From Escherichia phage 4E10: DNA of 64,000 nt. The DNA is taken from sequence record OQ689735.1. One strand, written 5' to 3'. The notes beneath the pieces were generated by a model that worked only from the letters and a program-made list of their open reading frames with translations, did not search any database and was not told where the DNA came from. A program made the translations under genes and the position numbers. Below, one piece after another: positions 1 to 62,200 of the stretch; within the stretch, counting starts at the first letter, position 1; each line of letters starts with the position of its first letter.

Positions 1-360
1 ATTTAATTTTCCTACAATCACTCACAAACTCTTTCATTGATTCGTTTTCAATATAAGACATATAGCTATTATATTCCTTTAATTGTATTTTGTAATCCTT
101 TTTTCTTTGCCAATTTATTTTAAAATTATCATAATGAAAATATAGTATGGTGCCAAAGAATGAAAATAATGAAATCGCTATAGTATAATGAAGTTCACTC
201 CAAACCTCTGTTATAATTGCTGAACCATCGACGTTTAAAATAAAACAGTCAATCATTAATCCAATAAGACTACCCGCAAGAGCTGCAAATACTGACACGG
301 CAAGAATTAACAGTGCCTCAAGAAACGAATATTTGACTTTATTTAGTTTTGGCTTTTGCA
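1..360 (-). CDS. partial small membrane protein (N-terminal part in window, gene continues past position 1)
   Basis: ATG at 360-358 (MQKPKLNKVKYSFLEALLILAVSVF...), frame open to window edge; two hydrophobic segments; C-terminal region resembles the neighbouring 343-735 product. Confidence 0.4.
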
Positions 361-735
361 TCGTGATTCCTTAACAAATTTCATAATTTCATTAAATTCA
401 TACATATCTAGCTTAAGCTGGTGTTCCTTTTTAATCTTTTTACACCGGGCTTTCCAATCACGTACACGTTTACGATAGTGTCTTCCTTGATACCAGTATC
501 CTATCCAATTTACAGGTATTAATAAAAGCGGAACTACCAATGGAAGAATTAGTGTTGCTCCAAATATTACACCAGATTCAATATCAGTCATAACGTCTAT
601 AATCATTCCAGCAATCAGCAGAATCACAAATGATACAGCTACCACAGGACCTATTAACACATCAGTAGAAATTATCTGACGCTTTAATTCATACTTCAAC
701 GGTTTACTTGGAAGGTATAGTGATGGCTTTGACAT
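343..735 (-). CDS. small membrane protein, two predicted TM helices (hypothetical)
   Basis: six-frame ORF 343..756; track start is TTG, first ATG at 735 with AAGGA upstream; hydrophobic stretches VVAVSFVILLIAGMII and ATLILPLVVPLLLIPV. Confidence 0.5.
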   Translation of the reverse strand: MSKPSLYLPSKPLKYELKRQIISTDVLIGPVVAVSFVILLIAGMIIDVMTDIESGVIFGATLILPLVVPLLLIPVNWIGYWYQGRHYRKRVRDWKARCKKIKKEHQLKLDMYEFNEIMKFVKESRCKSQN

Positions 736-1312
736 ATTCTCTACATTCCTTAACAAATTTTTCTAATAATAAATCGCTTTCAAAATTGGGATTTTCTACG
801 AATTTATCAAAAAGATCATCAACAATAGTTAAGATATTCTTTTTACTAAGAATACGTTTATTTTCATGCTTCGTTTCAGAATCAACTATAAGAGTAAAGA
901 AATATTTCTTGCCCTGAAATTTTACAGTAGTATCAATATAGAATAAATTTGACTTTTGTAAATTACGTTTAAACCATTCATCACTTAAACTATAAACGCC
1001 AAGATAATCATAATTGTCGTTTAAATAACAGACCGTCCATTCAGGAGAAACAAAATCAGTAAATTCAACATCAAAATCGCATGTTAATAAATGAATTGAT
1101 TCAATACTGTTAATAAGTATTCCAGGACGTATTAAAGACTTTTTACCTCTAGAAAATCTTCCAGAAAGACTTTCATCAGTTTCATATGAAGAACCCCAAT
1201 AATAATTACGTCCTTCTGCCATACGTTTAAGAGCATTTAATAATTGGTCTGGAACATCAACCTGTCTTTGAAACTCTTCAAACATTGAATTGAAATCACT
1301 TTGCATTTTCAT
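704..1312 (-). CDS. hypothetical protein
   Basis: 202-aa ORF with ATG start, same strand as neighbours; overlaps next gene by about 30 nt. Confidence 0.55.
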   Translation of the reverse strand: MKMQSDFNSMFEEFQRQVDVPDQLLNALKRMAEGRNYYWGSSYETDESLSGRFSRGKKSLIRPGILINSIESIHLLTCDFDVEFTDFVSPEWTVCYLNDNYDYLGVYSLSDEWFKRNLQKSNLFYIDTTVKFQGKKYFFTLIVDSETKHENKRILSKKNILTIVDDLFDKFVENPNFESDLLLEKFVKECREYVKAITIPSK

Positions 1313-1333
1313 TCCTATTTACTCCAAGTAATA

Positions 1334-1347
1334 GGGGCCGAAGCCCC
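1334..1347. terminator. GGGGC-CGAA-GCCCC tetraloop hairpin between the PspA-like gene and the next gene (partial terminator or RNA stability element)
   Basis: perfect 5-bp GC stem with GNRA-type loop; only a weak U tract on the minus strand. Confidence 0.35.
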
Positions 1348-1353
1348 TTATCA

Positions 1354-1947
1354 TTATTTCAGAGAATTAATGTATTCCTGAACATCGGCAGAGGTAGTTT
1401 CAACCCCAGAAATATTACCGTTAAAGGTTTCAACTCGAGCAAGAGTATCTTCAATATCAACCTTAGTCAGTGCTGCAATTTCAACTACATCATCAGCAGT
1501 ACTAATTCCAAGGGCATTCGCGGCGCGAGTTTCACGGATATATTCCAATTTAACTGCAAGTTCTTGGCGAGCATCATCCAATTCAACTACTTTCTTAGCG
1601 ATTTCAATTCGCATTTCAGCATAACCATCAGCTTTAGTAGTCAACTGCTCAGCTGTTCGACGATATAGTAAACCGAGTTTAGCATGCATTGTTACATCTT
1701 GACCTTCGGAAAGAAGCTTGCGAATTTCACGCTCTTTTGATTCGGCCTGCTTATTCTTTTCGACAATAAGTTCACGAATACGCTTTTCTTCATTAATAGA
1801 TTTAACGGAAGCAGTTTTTAGATCTTTAATCTTATCAAGTAGTTTTGCTGCCGCAGCAGTATACTGTTCTTCGACAGATAGATTTTTAGCCATAGCAGAA
1901 CCAAGTTTAGTGCGAATAAACTCAACAATTTTCTTCAGTGTGTTCAT
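1354..1947 (-). CDS. coiled-coil protein, PspA/IM30 (phage-shock protein A / Vipp1)-like
   Basis: 197-aa ORF, ATG with AAGGAAA SD; helical Ala/Glu/Lys-rich sequence; [12 protein letters not shown] and [19 protein letters not shown] resemble conserved PspA_IM30 helices as remembered; assignment not search-verified. Confidence 0.5.
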
Positions 1948-2019
1948 AGTATTTCCTTAGGTTGATTAAGATTTAAAATCCGTGAGAGTATTATACCCTG
2001 TTATTTGAGAGATGTAAAC

Positions 2020-2355
2020 TTATTCTTCGTCTATTTCATCGATAAAGACATCAATGGCCTCGATAACGGCATCATTGATAACCAATAAAGTAAAATCATC
2101 GTCAGTGCCTTTAGAATATTCTAAAGCATTGATATATGCTTGGTTGGCAAGTTCCCAAGCCTTTTTAAAATAAGGAGCTTCATCATCAGGGCCAACGAAA
2201 CGTACACCTTCAAAGATACGGTTAGCATAATCTAATACCCATTGTACAGGCATGTTTTGAGAACGTTCGTTAAACTCTTCAAAGTCCTTAGATTCAAAAA
2301 GTTCTTCAGGGTAATTATTTCTATTACAAAAAGCTTTACTAAAGTTACGTTTCAT
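2020..2355 (-). CDS. hypothetical acidic protein
   Basis: 111-aa ORF, ATG with GAGGAGAA SD; acidic C-terminus. Confidence 0.55.
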   Translation of the reverse strand: MKRNFSKAFCNRNNYPEELFESKDFEEFNERSQNMPVQWVLDYANRIFEGVRFVGPDDEAPYFKKAWELANQAYINALEYSKGTDDDFTLLVINDAVIEAIDVFIDEIDEE

Positions 2356-2410
2356 AATGTTCTCCTCAAATTATGGGCTCATAATATCTCAATCATGAGC
2401 CCGTGTAAAC

Positions 2411-2674
2411 TTATTTCATATTATTGAAATATTCTTCTGCGATTTCGTCGTTATCATGGTAAACTTTAGAAGACAATTTAACATAACCTTCAGCAGTGAA
2501 CATGTTAATCACAACCTTTACAGTATACCACTGACCGTCTTCATTGCCCATTACCGCATAAGTTTCAAACATCGGATGATCAGGACCGATAACTTTAATA
2601 TCATTCACTGTACGACCGAAATCTTCTGAAACACATTTCATAAAGAAGTTGAACAGTTCGCCGTAATTATCCAT
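2411..2674 (-). CDS. hypothetical protein
   Basis: ORF 2411..2686; track start is TTG, first ATG at 2674 with GGAGA SD; first gene after early promoter at 2712-2750. Confidence 0.5.
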   Translation of the reverse strand: MDNYGELFNFFMKCVSEDFGRTVNDIKVIGPDHPMFETYAVMGNEDGQWYTVKVVINMFTAEGYVKLSSKVYHDNDEIAEEYFNNMK

Positions 2675-2711
2675 TTCGTTCTCCAAGTTGTTTTCTGTAT
2701 CAGTAGTTGAT

Positions 2712-2750
2712 AGTTGTATAGTACCATGGAAGAACGGGGATGTAAACAGT
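2712..2750 (-). promoter_or_regulatory. T4 early-type sigma70 promoter
   Basis: minus strand GTTTAC (-35), 18-bp spacer, TACTAT (-10), upstream of the gene starting at 2674. Confidence 0.45.
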
Positions 2751-2876
2751 TTTGTGAAAATTTTTTTAAAAAATTTTAGGGAATTCTAGGGTCAGGAGGG
2801 GCAATTAAAAGGTAGGATAATATATTATAAAGGGTATAAACTAAATGATGCCTAGAGAGGCCCGGAAAGGCCTAGA

Positions 2877-2911
2877 TACCAAAAAGCCCCAACCTTTCGG
2901 TCGGGGCTAAG
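2877..2911 (-). terminator. rho-independent terminator downstream of the internal-protein-like gene
   Basis: minus-strand RNA GCCCCGACC-GAAA-GGUUGGGGC followed by UUUUUGG; identical copy at 3436-3470. Confidence 0.6.
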
Positions 2912-2915
2912 AATG

Positions 2916-3389
2916 TTATTTGATTTGTTTAGCAGACCAAATGCGGTCTTTAATAATTTTTTGGATGTCTTCAACATACTCAAGAGAGTGAGCATGTGGG
3001 TTATCTTTGAAACTATAAGCACGAGCTAGCTTTTGGCCTTCAGTTTTGATTACTAAAAGCTCTTTAAGGATAGCTTCATATTTGGAGATAATTCCTTTAA
3101 CAATATTTTTTTCTTGTGCAGCTTTAGGATCTGCTTTAGGAGCAGGTTTACCCGAAGCCTTTGCAAAAGCAGCGCCAGTAGCAACTAGACTTTTCCAGGC
3201 CATACTAACCGCATTTCCTGTAAATCCTTCTGCTTTCATGTCGCGAGCAAATTGGAATCGCGATTCGTCAGAAGCATCTTTATAAGAATATTTACCCGCT
3301 GCAATGGCTGCTTTTGCAACAGCTTGAATTTCGGTGCTAGATGCTTCATTTAACACCGCTTCATTTAAAAATTGAGTATATGATTTCAT
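2916..3389 (-). CDS. internal-protein-like capsid-targeted protein (CTS-bearing)
   Basis: 157-aa ORF; N-terminus MKSYTQFLNE|A matches the T4 internal-protein capsid targeting sequence with L-x-E gp21 cleavage site; own SD; bracketed by identical terminator hairpins. Confidence 0.6.
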   Translation of the reverse strand: MKSYTQFLNEAVLNEASSTEIQAVAKAAIAAGKYSYKDASDESRFQFARDMKAEGFTGNAVSMAWKSLVATGAAFAKASGKPAPKADPKAAQEKNIVKGIISKYEAILKELLVIKTEGQKLARAYSFKDNPHAHSLEYVEDIQKIIKDRIWSAKQIK

Positions 3390-3435
3390 CTTATTTCCTG
3401 TTTTAATTCGTGGATTTAATATACTACTATATTTA

Positions 3436-3470
3436 TACCAAAAAGCCCCAACCTTTCGGTCGGGGCTAAG
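3436..3470 (-). terminator. rho-independent terminator at the end of the tRNA/stable-RNA operon
   Basis: 35-bp sequence identical to 2877-2911; hairpin plus U tract on the minus strand. Confidence 0.6.
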
Positions 3471-3518
3471 CCTTGCGGCAACCTTGTCGGGGTTCCACCT
3501 GCTAAGGCAAGTGTTTGT

Positions 3519-3610
3519 ACGAAACGCCGGGATTCGAACCCGGTTATTAAGCAGTTGACGCTACTCAATATTTTTAAAAGGCCATATCTCGACCATATCC
3601 GAACGTTCCG
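3519..3610 (-). ncRNA. tRNA-like stable RNA candidate at the distal end of the tRNA operon
   Basis: perfect T-arm (CCGGG-TTCGAAT-CCCGG) at 3527-3543 and a 7-bp acceptor-like pairing between 3604-3610 and 3520-3526, but no canonical D/anticodon arms; sits between the embedded ORF and the operon terminator. Confidence 0.3.
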
Positions 3611-3776
3611 TCAAAAACGCTACTCGACTTACGGCAAAGATATTTCCTCGAATCGATAATTCGGTGCGCCGTTTCTGCTGTGATGTAAGAGGGCATCAAT
3701 AAACGCAAAGATTATTAACGCAATTCCTTACTCAGGGAACATCAGTCCGACGACTTACCGGTAGCGACCCGGTTTC

Positions 3777-4127
3777 TTAATATTCTTTTAAAGCATCAAT
3801 CTGTTTACGGCGTTCACGCCATAAATCAATTGCTTCATACGCGGATTCAGCATTTCGAATTGGACGGCATTTATATAAAGACTTGTGATTTTGATATTGC
3901 GTAGATAACGGAATTTTATCTAAAAGGTCTTTACGTTCAAAGTATTCGTAACCATCTAAGCCAAATGAACGATTTTTGAGAAATTGCCAATGACCATATT
4001 CGTTTTCGACATAAACATAATCCGCGTGTTGATAAAGCAAATTAATTACACGTTCAGAAATAATAGTGTCATTGTGATTAAAATAAAATGTTAAATCATG
4101 AACTACTAAATAAACATTACCTTTCAT
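3777..4127 (-). CDS. hypothetical protein embedded in tRNA cluster
   Basis: 116-aa ORF, ATG 16 nt downstream of tRNA-Arg 3' end with GAGGAAAA SD. Confidence 0.5.
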   Translation of the reverse strand: MKGNVYLVVHDLTFYFNHNDTIISERVINLLYQHADYVYVENEYGHWQFLKNRSFGLDGYEYFERKDLLDKIPLSTQYQNHKSLYKCRPIRNAESAYEAIDLWRERRKQIDALKEY

Positions 4128-4143
4128 ATTTTCCTCACTTAAT

Positions 4144-4219
4144 TGGTCGAGGCAGTAGGGATCGAACCTACGACCTAGGACTTAGAAGGTCCTTGCTCTT
4201 CCTTCTGAGCTATGCCCCG
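4144..4219 (-). tRNA. tRNA-Arg (anticodon UCU)
   Basis: manual fold: 7-bp acceptor, D and T arms (GGTTCGATCC), anticodon loop CUUCUAA, CCA encoded. Confidence 0.8.
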
Positions 4220-4223
4220 TAAT

Positions 4224-4299
4224 TGGGGTGACCGATGGGAGTCGAACCCATGACTACGAGAATCACAATCTCGAGTTCTACCAACTGAACTACGGCCAC
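4224..4299 (-). tRNA. tRNA-His (anticodon GUG)
   Basis: manual fold: acceptor GUGGCCG/CGGUCAC, C73, anticodon loop UUGUGAU, T arm GGTTCGACTCC, CCA encoded; no encoded G-1. Confidence 0.7.
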
Positions 4300-4412
4300 A
4301 TTAATACCTACTCCAACAATCAAGATGTCTTCACACGAAATTAAGAGAAGAGTGATCAGTTCAACCCTATAATCGCGTCAAGTAGATATTAATGTGACAG
4401 TTGTCACAAATT

Positions 4413-4487
4413 TGGCGGACGTGATAGGATTCGAACCTATAACCAATCGCTTAACAGGCGATCGCTCTGCCATTGAGCTACACATCC
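4413..4487 (-). tRNA. tRNA-Asn (anticodon GUU)
   Basis: manual fold: anticodon stem ATCGC/GCGAT, loop CUGUUAA, T arm ATAGGTTCGAATCCTAT, CCA encoded. Confidence 0.8.
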
Positions 4488-4491
4488 AAAT

Positions 4492-4578
4492 TGGTGGGGA
4501 GTGATGGAGTCGAACCACCCGAGTCGCAATGACAATGAATTTACAGTCCACACCGCTACCTCTACGGGATAACTCCCC
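4492..4578 (-). tRNA. tRNA-Tyr (anticodon GUA), long variable arm
   Basis: manual fold: acceptor GGGGAGU/ACUCCCC, anticodon loop CUGUAAA, variable arm GUCAUUGCGAC, CCA encoded. Confidence 0.7.
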
Positions 4579-4591
4579 TTAATTCTTAATT

Positions 4592-4666
4592 TGGTGGCCC
4601 TGGGTGGAATTGAACCACCATCTGGCGATTATGAGTCGCTTGCTTGAACCTTCCAGCTACAGGGCC
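4592..4666 (-). tRNA. tRNA with CAU anticodon (Met, or lysidine-modified Ile as recalled for the T4 CAU tRNA)
   Basis: manual fold: acceptor GGCCCUG/CAGGGCC, anticodon loop CUCAUAA, T arm GGTGGTTCAATTCCACC, CCA encoded. Confidence 0.75.
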
Positions 4667-4667
4667 T

Positions 4668-4743
4668 TGGTGCTGATTGACGGAATCGAACCGCCGACCT
4701 TCTCATTACAAGTGAGTTGCTCTACCTACTGAGCTAAATCAGC
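4668..4743 (-). tRNA. tRNA-Thr (anticodon UGU)
   Basis: manual fold: acceptor GCUGAUU/AAUCAGC, anticodon loop CUUGUAA, CCA encoded. Confidence 0.8.
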
Positions 4744-4748
4744 AAAAC

Positions 4749-4838
4749 TGGCGGAGGCGATAGGATTTGAACCTATGAGTCGCCGGAGCGACTGCCGGTT
4801 TTCAAGACCGGTGCATTAAACCACTCTGCCACGCCTCC
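4749..4838 (-). tRNA. tRNA-Ser (anticodon UGA), long variable arm
   Basis: manual fold: anticodon stem CCGGU/ACCGG, loop CUUGAAA; 2 nt from tRNA-Pro, consistent with a dimeric precursor. Confidence 0.8.
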
Positions 4839-4840
4839 AG

Positions 4841-4914
4841 TCTCCATACAAGGATTTGAACCTTGGACCTCCTGATCCCAAATCAGGCGCTCTACCAAAC
4901 TGAGCTACACGGAG
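4841..4914 (-). tRNA. tRNA-Pro (anticodon UGG), CCA not encoded
   Basis: manual fold: anticodon stem CCUGA/UCAGG, loop UUUGGGA; 3' trailer is not CCA. Confidence 0.75.
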
Positions 4915-4924
4915 TAAATTAAAT

Positions 4925-4998
<74 letters not shown>

Positions 4999-5003
4999 AA
5001 ATT

Positions 5004-5090
5004 TGGTGCGAGAAGTGGGACTCGAACCCACAAGGAAATCATTCCGCAGCATTTTAAGTGCTGTGCCTTTACCAATTTGACCATTCTCGC
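5004..5090 (-). tRNA. tRNA-Leu (anticodon UAA), long variable arm
   Basis: manual fold: acceptor GCGAGAA/UUCUCGC, anticodon loop CUUAAAA, CCA encoded. Confidence 0.8.
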
Positions 5091-5091
5091 G

Positions 5092-5164
5092 CTGGGAATA
5101 AAGGACTCGAACCTTTGCATCCTGGAATCAAAATCCAGTGCCTTACCAACTTGGCTAATTCCCA
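5092..5164 (-). tRNA. tRNA-Gln (anticodon UUG), CCA not encoded
   Basis: manual fold: acceptor UGGGAAU/AUUCCCA, anticodon stem CUGGA/UCCAG, loop UUUUGAU. Confidence 0.75.
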
Positions 5165-41469: not shown

Positions 41470-41491
41470 TGAAGAAAGGGGCCGAAGCCCC
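41470..41491 (-). terminator. terminator after hoc
   Basis: minus-strand GGGGCUUCGGCCCC hairpin followed by UUUCUUCAUUUUG. Confidence 0.5.
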
Positions 41492-62177: not shown

Positions 62178-62200
62178 GGGGCCGAAGCCCCTGTTTTATT
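62178..62200. terminator. intergenic GGGGCCGAAGCCCC hairpin (terminator-like on the plus strand, stability element on the minus strand)
   Basis: perfect hairpin; the T-run follows on the plus strand only, although flanking genes are minus-strand. Confidence 0.35.

Follow-up and report, generated by a model that had tools for sequence, protein, structure and literature searches.

The window analyzed here is a stretch of 64,000 nucleotides (nt) from Escherichia phage 4E10 (sequence record OQ689735.1), and the gene in question is e.6 (positions 1354 to 1947, minus strand), which encodes a 197-amino-acid (aa) protein within a block of small minus-strand genes at positions 1 to 2760. Profile comparison and structure prediction support the conclusion that e.6 is a divergent phage-encoded homologue of the PspA/IM30 (Vipp1)/ESCRT-III superfamily. 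What is new is e.6 as a phage-specific variant of the PspA family with undescribed partners; the gene set to which it belongs, e.3 to e.8, is itself already known in phage T4.

Relationship of e.6 to PspA/IM30

The e.6 family is small, with 49 proteins retrieved by a word-indexed search, and its full-length members are all about 200 aa long. An alignment of 42 family members was compared by hhalign with an alignment of PspA plus Vipp1, the latter shallow (seven enterobacterial PspA sequences and one Vipp1 from Synechocystis), and the two matched at a probability of 92.9% (E = 3.7e-7; score, 49.9) over 167 collinear columns. The match placed columns 4 to 179 of the e.6 family against columns 1 to 171 of PspA/Vipp1 and was collinear from the N terminus. 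Reversed alignments scored about 19 (about 1% probability), 40 column shuffles scored at most 20.4, and 40 heptad-block shuffles scored at most 24.1 (5.6% probability) versus 49.9 for the real comparison. Since the reversed and shuffled controls collapsed, coiled-coil composition does not explain the match. Vipp1 was also found collinearly when the e.6 profile was run against the sequences of the PDB, but only at E values of 1 to 2.3, and the identity of e.6 to Escherichia coli PspA is about 14%. The motifs quoted in an earlier note on this DNA, which had been made from the letters alone, are present in the 197-aa protein and align with TIAEEKRTEQRL and NGEENLAREALARKK of Vipp1.

The 42 family members were also scanned singly against the PspA/IM30 profile of Pfam, PF04012, for which the curated gathering cutoff is 33.9 bits. 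Five of the 42 matched the profile; the cutoff was passed by P0068 (39.0 bits) and P0066 (35.1 bits), and P0067 and P0069 reached about 22 bits, below the cutoff. The matches of P0068 and P0066 span the profile from position 2 or 3 to position 143. Both proteins are full-length relatives of e.6, with E values of 2.9e-20 and 3.1e-21, respectively, to the e.6 profile and of 4.5e-12 and 2e-15 in BLASTP against the window e.6 over the whole length, and both belong to the Ackermannviridae (Kuttervirus and relatives). Because the window e.6 sequence is itself subthreshold and these relatives pass, its membership in PspA/IM30 is transitive and is placed at the superfamily level.

The structure predicted for e.6 by AlphaFold2 (AF2) has a mean predicted local distance difference test (pLDDT) score of 74, rising to about 90 in the hairpin. 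Helices are predicted at residues 2 to 22, 25 to 80, and 86 to 145, the second and third of which form a long helical hairpin like that made by alpha1 and alpha2+3 in PspA/IM30/ESCRT-III; the predicted N-terminal helix followed by this hairpin is PspA-like. When the model was searched against the PDB with Foldseek, Vipp1 occupied ranks 1 to 8 (E = 8.6e-4 to 9.4e-3); archaeal CdvB2 came next, and PspA appeared at rank 37. The predicted N-terminal helix would be amphipathic and cationic, with a hydrophobic moment of 0.45 (0.42 for PspA and 0.57 for Vipp1) and a net charge of +4. Short C-terminal helices (residues 154 to 160, 165 to 175, and 186 to 196) are modeled with low to moderate confidence, and the hhalign match stops at PspA residue 171. 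The C-terminal 50 residues are family specific and highly conserved, with the motifs LGI..DV, VETF, and EY[IL]xSLK. The resemblance to the PspA/Vipp1 (ESCRT-III-like) family that the earlier note had seen in the 197-aa product was therefore borne out by hhalign (92.9%), by two relatives that pass the Pfam cutoff, and by the top eight Foldseek ranks; neither of the adverse outcomes named there was found, the first being the lack of any significant PspA_IM30 or ESCRT-III match together with an unrelated fold and the second being a well-characterized T4 gene set with a different known function.

PspA/IM30 (Vipp1), the bacterial ESCRT-III branch represented by PF04012, has the same order of elements as that predicted for e.6 (amphipathic helix, long hairpin, and shorter C-terminal helices) in a protein of 222 rather than 197 aa. 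Unlike PspA/IM30, e.6 is encoded by virulent phages, is expressed from early promoters, and carries the family-specific C terminus. The similarity of e.6 to archaeal and eukaryotic ESCRT-III proteins (CdvB and Snf7) is weaker than that to Vipp1, and its neighborhood contains no Vps4-type ATPase and no MIM/MIT system. Some e.6 homologues (in OR539217 and OL870317) are labeled "host specificity protein"; this label has no support in sequence, model, or context and looks automatic.

The e.5 partner and a shared C-terminal tail

Loci with an e.6 relative, 48 altogether, were drawn from GenBank phages, IMG/VR, and metagenome assemblies. In nearly all of them a gene for a protein of 180 to 315 aa starts 9 to 67 nt downstream of e.6 (40 to 67 nt in most), and an iterated hidden Markov model (HMM) search seeded with the window e.5 identified an e.5-family gene right after e.6 in 45 of these loci; RB43 has one other gene between e.6 and its e.5-family gene. 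Cross-matches between PHROG families linked e.5 (phrog_2607) to phrog_13418, phrog_16253, and phrog_10830. In T4-like genera the e.6-e.5 pair is found between e and the tRNA genes, but RB43-like and Aeromonas phages carry it between nrdD and nrdG. The pair stays together although its genomic address differs, and its linkage to lysis genes is not conserved. When the whole block was compared across T4-like genomes, as the earlier note had proposed, e.6, e.5, and the membrane proteins were kept, whereas e.7 (9 of 47 loci) and e.8 (14 of 47 loci) were sporadic and not conserved companions of e.6. These results indicated that the conserved partner of e.6 is e.5, a gene given no emphasis in the earlier note, and that the module is best drawn to include e.6, e.5, and the tail-bearing membrane proteins but to exclude e.7 and e.8.

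In the window, e.5 (positions 704 to 1312, minus strand) encodes a soluble, fast-evolving protein of 202 aa with the sequence FVKECR near its C terminus. The identity of e.6 across genera is 48 to 100%, whereas tblastn mostly fails to detect e.5, e.4, and e.3 beyond Tequatrovirus; in one comparison, an e.6 identity of 88% goes with an e.5 identity of 47%. As judged by these identities, e.6 evolves slowly and its partners e.5, e.4, and e.3 evolve fast. The low-confidence AF2 model of e.5, made from a shallow alignment, has a pLDDT of 62; a Foldseek search of the PDB with it gave no meaningful match (template modeling score of <0.2), and nothing was found when PDB sequences were searched with a profile. 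At the level of this model e.5 remains an orphan fold. Relatives of e.5 carry the precomputed Pfam label PF26876. In three large Aeromonas phages of about 230 kb (loci L035, L046, and L047), the e.5-family gene is tandemly duplicated directly after e.6.

Alignment of 20 e.5-family proteins with identities of 12 to 20% left as invariant columns only the initiator methionine, F186, and C190, the last two being part of an F-[IV]-x-x-C-R motif near the C terminus. The same kind of tail ends the two genes that follow. The e.4 gene (positions 343 to 735, minus strand; phrog_2604) encodes a predicted two-transmembrane (two-TM) inner-membrane protein of 130 aa with a basic cytoplasmic C-terminal tail, and e.3 (positions 2 to 361, minus strand, 120 codons; phrog_2330) encodes a two-TM membrane protein with the same type of tail. 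The earlier note had placed a partial gene at positions 1 to 360, but e.3 starts at position 361 and loses nothing except its stop codon at the window edge. Two hydrophobic segments in each protein (Kyte-Doolittle) agreed with the two-TM assignment made there, but the tandem paralogy proposed for e.4 and e.3 is weak, with a BLASTP E value of 0.046 at 21% identity, and a profile-profile comparison (86% probability) aligned the two over 41 columns in the C-terminal cytoplasmic tail only. On the minus strand, the tail motif is FVKECR in e.5 (residues 186 to 191; positions 740 to 757), FVKESR in e.4 (residues 120 to 125; positions 361 to 378), and FVSDCR in e.3 (residues 112 to 117; positions 11 to 28); e.4 ends in KFVKESRCKSQN and e.3 in EFVSDCRKIK.

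With the tail defined as [FW][IVL]xx[CVMAIS][RK] within the last 14 residues, and with distinct proteins of genes 2 to 4 downstream of e.6 counted, a FIKECR-like tail was present in 49 of 54 downstream proteins with a hydrophobic segment versus 0 of 72 without one. An F[IV]xxCR tail recurs in the counterparts of e.3, e.4, and e.5 across Straboviridae genera, and the consensus of the e.5 family aligns with that of the tails across 15 columns. Among 293 non-overlapping open reading frames (ORFs) of a near-complete T4-type genome, a clean C-terminal motif was found in the real genes e.3, e.4, and e.5 only; gp59, with a loose match, and a spurious ORF supplied the remainder. The strict form of the motif appears once in the 64-kb window, in e.5. 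Because both ends of e.4 and e.3 are basic, the positive-inside rule predicts these ends to be cytoplasmic, so the tails would be accessible to a cytoplasmic partner. The C-terminal stretch of e.6 itself (residues 187 to 197; positions 1354 to 1386, minus strand) finishes in EYINSLK, with a near-invariant tyrosine and the form Y[IL]xSLK in many relatives. This end loosely resembles the partner tails, and the tails may imitate the C-terminal helix of e.6, a lead that comes from sequence comparison.

In the Ackermannviridae, the PspA-like gene is immediately followed by two to four genes whose products, mostly membrane anchored, end in [IV][ILV]xxAR (loci L002, L004, and L051), with the tails ILARAR, IIKHAR, ILANAR, IVHRAR, IIARAK, IVDRAR, and IVDKAR. 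Genes upstream of the PspA-like gene in this family gave no clean tail and one loose match, VVSDAK in a helicase, and the PspA-like gene is located near helicase and ligase genes. The gene after the Ackermannviridae e.6 relative was tested as an e.5 homologue and is not one. Hosts of phages with e.6-family members range from Aeromonas to Klebsiella and Salmonella. A second neighbor family with a common C-terminal motif was seen in the loci of many e.6 relatives: at genes 3 to 5 downstream of e.6 in loci L015 to L049 (for example, genes 2 to 4 downstream, d2 to d4, in L019), there are one to three tandem proteins of 65 to 105 aa that end in W[VI]SSSxxC or SSC.

Gene layout, promoter-like sites, and expression

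The window is Tequatrovirus-type DNA, its first 4 kb being 90 to 95% identical to hundreds of T4-like genomes. By the annotation of NC_000866, the minus-strand block at positions 1 to 2760 corresponds one-to-one to T4 e.8, e.7, e.6, e.5, e.4, and e.3, a block that the old T4 record L13089 named msp1 to msp6; in T4 it is two genes (e.2 and nudE) away from the lysozyme gene e. The two remaining genes encode soluble proteins with hypothetical functions, e.8 (positions 2411 to 2674, minus strand; 87 aa from ATG; phrog_2678) and e.7 (positions 2020 to 2355, minus strand; 111 aa; phrog_7266). The ORF coordinates given earlier for these two genes and for e.6, e.5, and e.4 (2411 to 2674, 2020 to 2355, 1354 to 1947, 704 to 1312, and 343 to 735) were all correct, on the minus strand. 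A Pfam scan of the window e.6, e.5, e.4, e.3, e.7, and e.8 proteins returned no families, and PHROGs placed the block proteins in families of "unknown function" only. The earlier note did not recognize the block as a described T4 function; the block is the known T4 gene set e.3 to e.8, but every gene in it is annotated there as hypothetical. In the literature searched, nothing was found on the function of T4 e.6 or on phage-encoded PspA, and no phage-encoded members are discussed in the Psp/ESCRT-III superfamily reviews and phyletic surveys that were consulted. A tblastn search of 50,697 phage records with E. coli PspA returned two unannotated metagenomic contigs only.

Three promoter-like sites were found on the minus strand. 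The first, an early-promoter-like site 5' of e.8 (positions 2718 to 2746), reads TTTACA-17-TACTAT with an extended -10 TG; the second, 5' of e.7 (positions 2381 to 2409), reads TTTACA-17-TATTAT (10/12 match); and the third, directly 5' of e.6 (positions 1990 to 2018), reads TTTACA-17-TATAAT (11/12 match). The annotation of L13089 also places -35/-10 signals before msp1, msp2, and msp3. An early promoter had been proposed to head the block, and the site is there at positions 2746 to 2718, but it is not the sole heading promoter, since better matches precede e.7 and e.6. To judge from these sequences, the block is served by three tandem early-type promoter-like sites and not by one. The RNA of all of the genes e.3 to e.8 is early in T4 data, and all of their proteins are made during T4 infection (PMC9697503 supplements). 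Early RNA is accompanied by early protein for e.4, e.5, e.7, and e.8, by middle protein for e.6, and by late protein for e.3 (PMC9697503 supplements).

The tetraloop hairpin reported after e.6 (positions 1334 to 1347, minus strand) was placed exactly and is annotated as a stem-loop after msp3 in L13089. It reads GGGGC-UUCG-GCCCC, lies 7 nt past the e.6 stop codon, and is not followed by a T-run. A 43-nt stretch that includes it has a folding energy of -13.1 kcal/mol, and the centroid, which contains the hairpin alone, has a value of -12.2. The hairpin 14-mer GGGGCTTCGGCCCC, with its C(UUCG)G tetraloop, occurs three times in the window (positions 1334 to 1347, 41478 to 41491, and 62178 to 62191, all on the minus strand) versus 0 expected, and the hairpin is therefore a recurrent intergenic RNA element of the genome and not specific to the operon.

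Upstream of e.8, the region from 2760 to 5164 differs from that of T4, with 11 tRNA genes (positions 4144 to 5164, minus strand) versus 8 in T4 and no segB between them. Extra ORFs at the position of T4 rnaC/rnaD are found at 2916 to 3389 (157 aa; phrog_2280) and 3777 to 4127 (116 aa; phrog_3355). Identical terminator-like hairpins, AGCCCCGACCGAAAGGTTGGGGCT followed by TTTTT, at positions 2885 to 2908 and 3444 to 3467 (minus strand) flank the 157-aa ORF, which suggests that this ORF is a duplicated or inserted cassette.

A proposed membrane-maintenance module and its alternatives

We favor, at somewhat better than an even chance, the reading that e.6 is a phage PspA-like inner-membrane scaffold that is recruited by tail-bearing partners and belongs to a membrane-maintenance module. 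By analogy with PspA, Vipp1, and LiaH, the N-terminal helix of e.6 would attach the protein to the cytoplasmic side of the host inner membrane, and the hairpin would mediate self-assembly. The e.5 protein and the two-TM proteins e.4 and e.3 would recruit or regulate e.6, with their cytoplasmic F-[IV]-x-x-C-R tails serving as a common docking peptide. The module might then stabilize, repair, or remodel the inner membrane in infection such that the proton motive force is preserved, candidate sources of damage being DNA injection, holin accumulation, and membrane-attacking host abortive-infection effectors. The fast-evolving bodies of e.5, e.4, and e.3 could be the host-facing parts that determine specificity.

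The models for such recruitment are LiaI-LiaH of Bacillus subtilis and PspB/PspC-PspA of E. coli, in which a PspA-like gene likewise adjoins small inner-membrane proteins with cytoplasmic tails. LiaI is a small membrane anchor that recruits the PspA homologue LiaH, and PspB/PspC engage PspA. Unlike PspB, PspC, and LiaI, to which they show no sequence relationship (no Pfam matches), e.4 and e.3 are accompanied by further partners: several e.6 partners, soluble e.5 included, share one C-terminal motif, and the partners evolve very fast. Unlike the classical Psp system, moreover, e.6 has no PspF, PspB, PspC, or other known Psp partner nearby and has e.5 and the tail-bearing membrane proteins instead.

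Several observations weigh against this reading. A search of 1.84 billion representative proteins with the e.6-profile HMM returned 45 family members and no bacterial PspA, so that HMMER by itself leaves the two families unlinked, and the window e.6 has no PF04012 match even at E values up to 10 and is below every Pfam threshold. The e.6 model is of low confidence at the N-terminal helix and in the C-terminal part (pLDDT of <50 at residues 1 to 20 and 151 to 163), and counts over related phages represent non-independent events. In T4, part of the tail motif coincides with the ribosome-binding site of the overlapping gene that follows, so nucleotide-level constraint could account for some of its conservation. 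A ribosome-binding site was considered and rejected as the sole cause of the motif: the bases that resemble a Shine-Dalgarno sequence do not occupy the same motif positions in e.4 as in e.3, Pseudotevenvirus relatives of e.5 carry the motif about 25 residues from the stop codon, and no other closely packed T4 gene has a clean copy. Finally, CRISPRi-ART lists e.2 to e.8 as of unknown function and "Not Fit" in laboratory hosts (PMC11879866 supplements), and HIDEN-SEQ lists e.2 to e.8 as non-essential, with e.6 insertions tolerated at 43 of 43 sites (bioRxiv 10.1101/2025.11.20.689424 supplement). Because e.2 to e.8 are dispensable in these laboratory-host screens, no phenotype backs any function of the e.6 module.

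A broader version of the proposal, which we regard as speculative and rather unlikely in its full form, is that the Straboviridae (T4-like) and Ackermannviridae (ViI-like) carry their own ESCRT-III-type system, in which a conserved e.6 polymer and changeable tail-docked client or adaptor proteins shield the inner membrane. The clients would be e.5, which is soluble, together with e.4, e.3, and other small membrane proteins; the docking peptide would be F[IV]xxCR in the Straboviridae and [IV]xxAR in the Ackermannviridae and may imitate the C-terminal helix of e.6 (..EYINSLK). Such a system could protect, for example, against depolarizing or perforating abortive-infection effectors, with the fast-evolving partners as the interface of an arms race.

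Two other readings are improbable, and about equally so. In the first, the PspA homology of e.6 stands but the module acts in T4 lysis control or superinfection exclusion rather than general repair or counter-defense, for example by buffering the membrane during holin T accumulation in lysis inhibition or by altering the membrane against a superinfecting phage; it would then join the known T4 membrane functions rI, rIII, imm, sp, and rIIA/B. This reading draws on the same homology and membrane-partner evidence as the favored one, on the two-gene distance (e.2 and nudE) of the T4 block from the lysozyme gene e, and on the late accumulation of e.3 protein despite early RNA. However, the e.6-e.5 pair is far from e in RB43-like and Aeromonas phages (nrdD-nrdG), the PspA-like gene is near helicase and ligase genes in the Ackermannviridae, and the genes are non-essential, with no lysis phenotype reported. 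In the second, e.6 is a coiled-coil scaffold that descended from or resembles PspA and no longer acts on membranes, being an adaptor for e.5 and others or a cytoplasmic structural or regulatory factor, and the score reflects a shared helical-hairpin design. Against it, the 167-column match is collinear from residue 1 and collapses on reversal or heptad-block shuffling, two family members pass the PF04012 cutoff, the predicted N-terminal helix shares its amphipathic, cationic character with the membrane-binding helix of PspA/Vipp1, and the tail-sharing neighbors are membrane anchored in both Tevenvirinae and Ackermannviridae.

It is very doubtful that e.6 targets the host Psp system as a PspA mimic, one that would bind either PspF, and so prevent psp operon induction, or PspB/PspC, or would poison host PspA by copolymerization: the helical hairpin region of PspA (residues 1 to 144) contacts PspF, but T4 shuts off host transcription early, so that control of the sigma-54 regulon would be of little value. 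The homology does cover the hairpin, the part of E. coli PspA crystallized as residues 1 to 144 (PDB 4WHE), but an identity of about 14% gives no sign that a specific binding surface is mimicked, the conserved phage-encoded partners and their common tail are left unexplained, and the host range of the family extends from Aeromonas to Klebsiella and Salmonella.

The favored reading of e.6 as a recruited PspA-like scaffold would, if true, give a testable role to T4 e.3 to e.6, which have been hypothetical and dispensable in genome-wide screens up to 2025, and the shared tail motif would offer a handle on the targeting of a PspA-like scaffold. With no phenotype seen to date, the interest of the e.6 module is tempered. 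The question is directly addressable because T4 genetics, cryo-electron microscopy of PspA/Vipp1, and defense-system collections exist. PspA was named "phage shock protein" for its induction in the host by a phage protein. A virulent model phage with a PspA homologue of its own would, if this holds true, provide a fresh view of ESCRT-III-type membrane maintenance and of the means by which phages keep host membranes energized.

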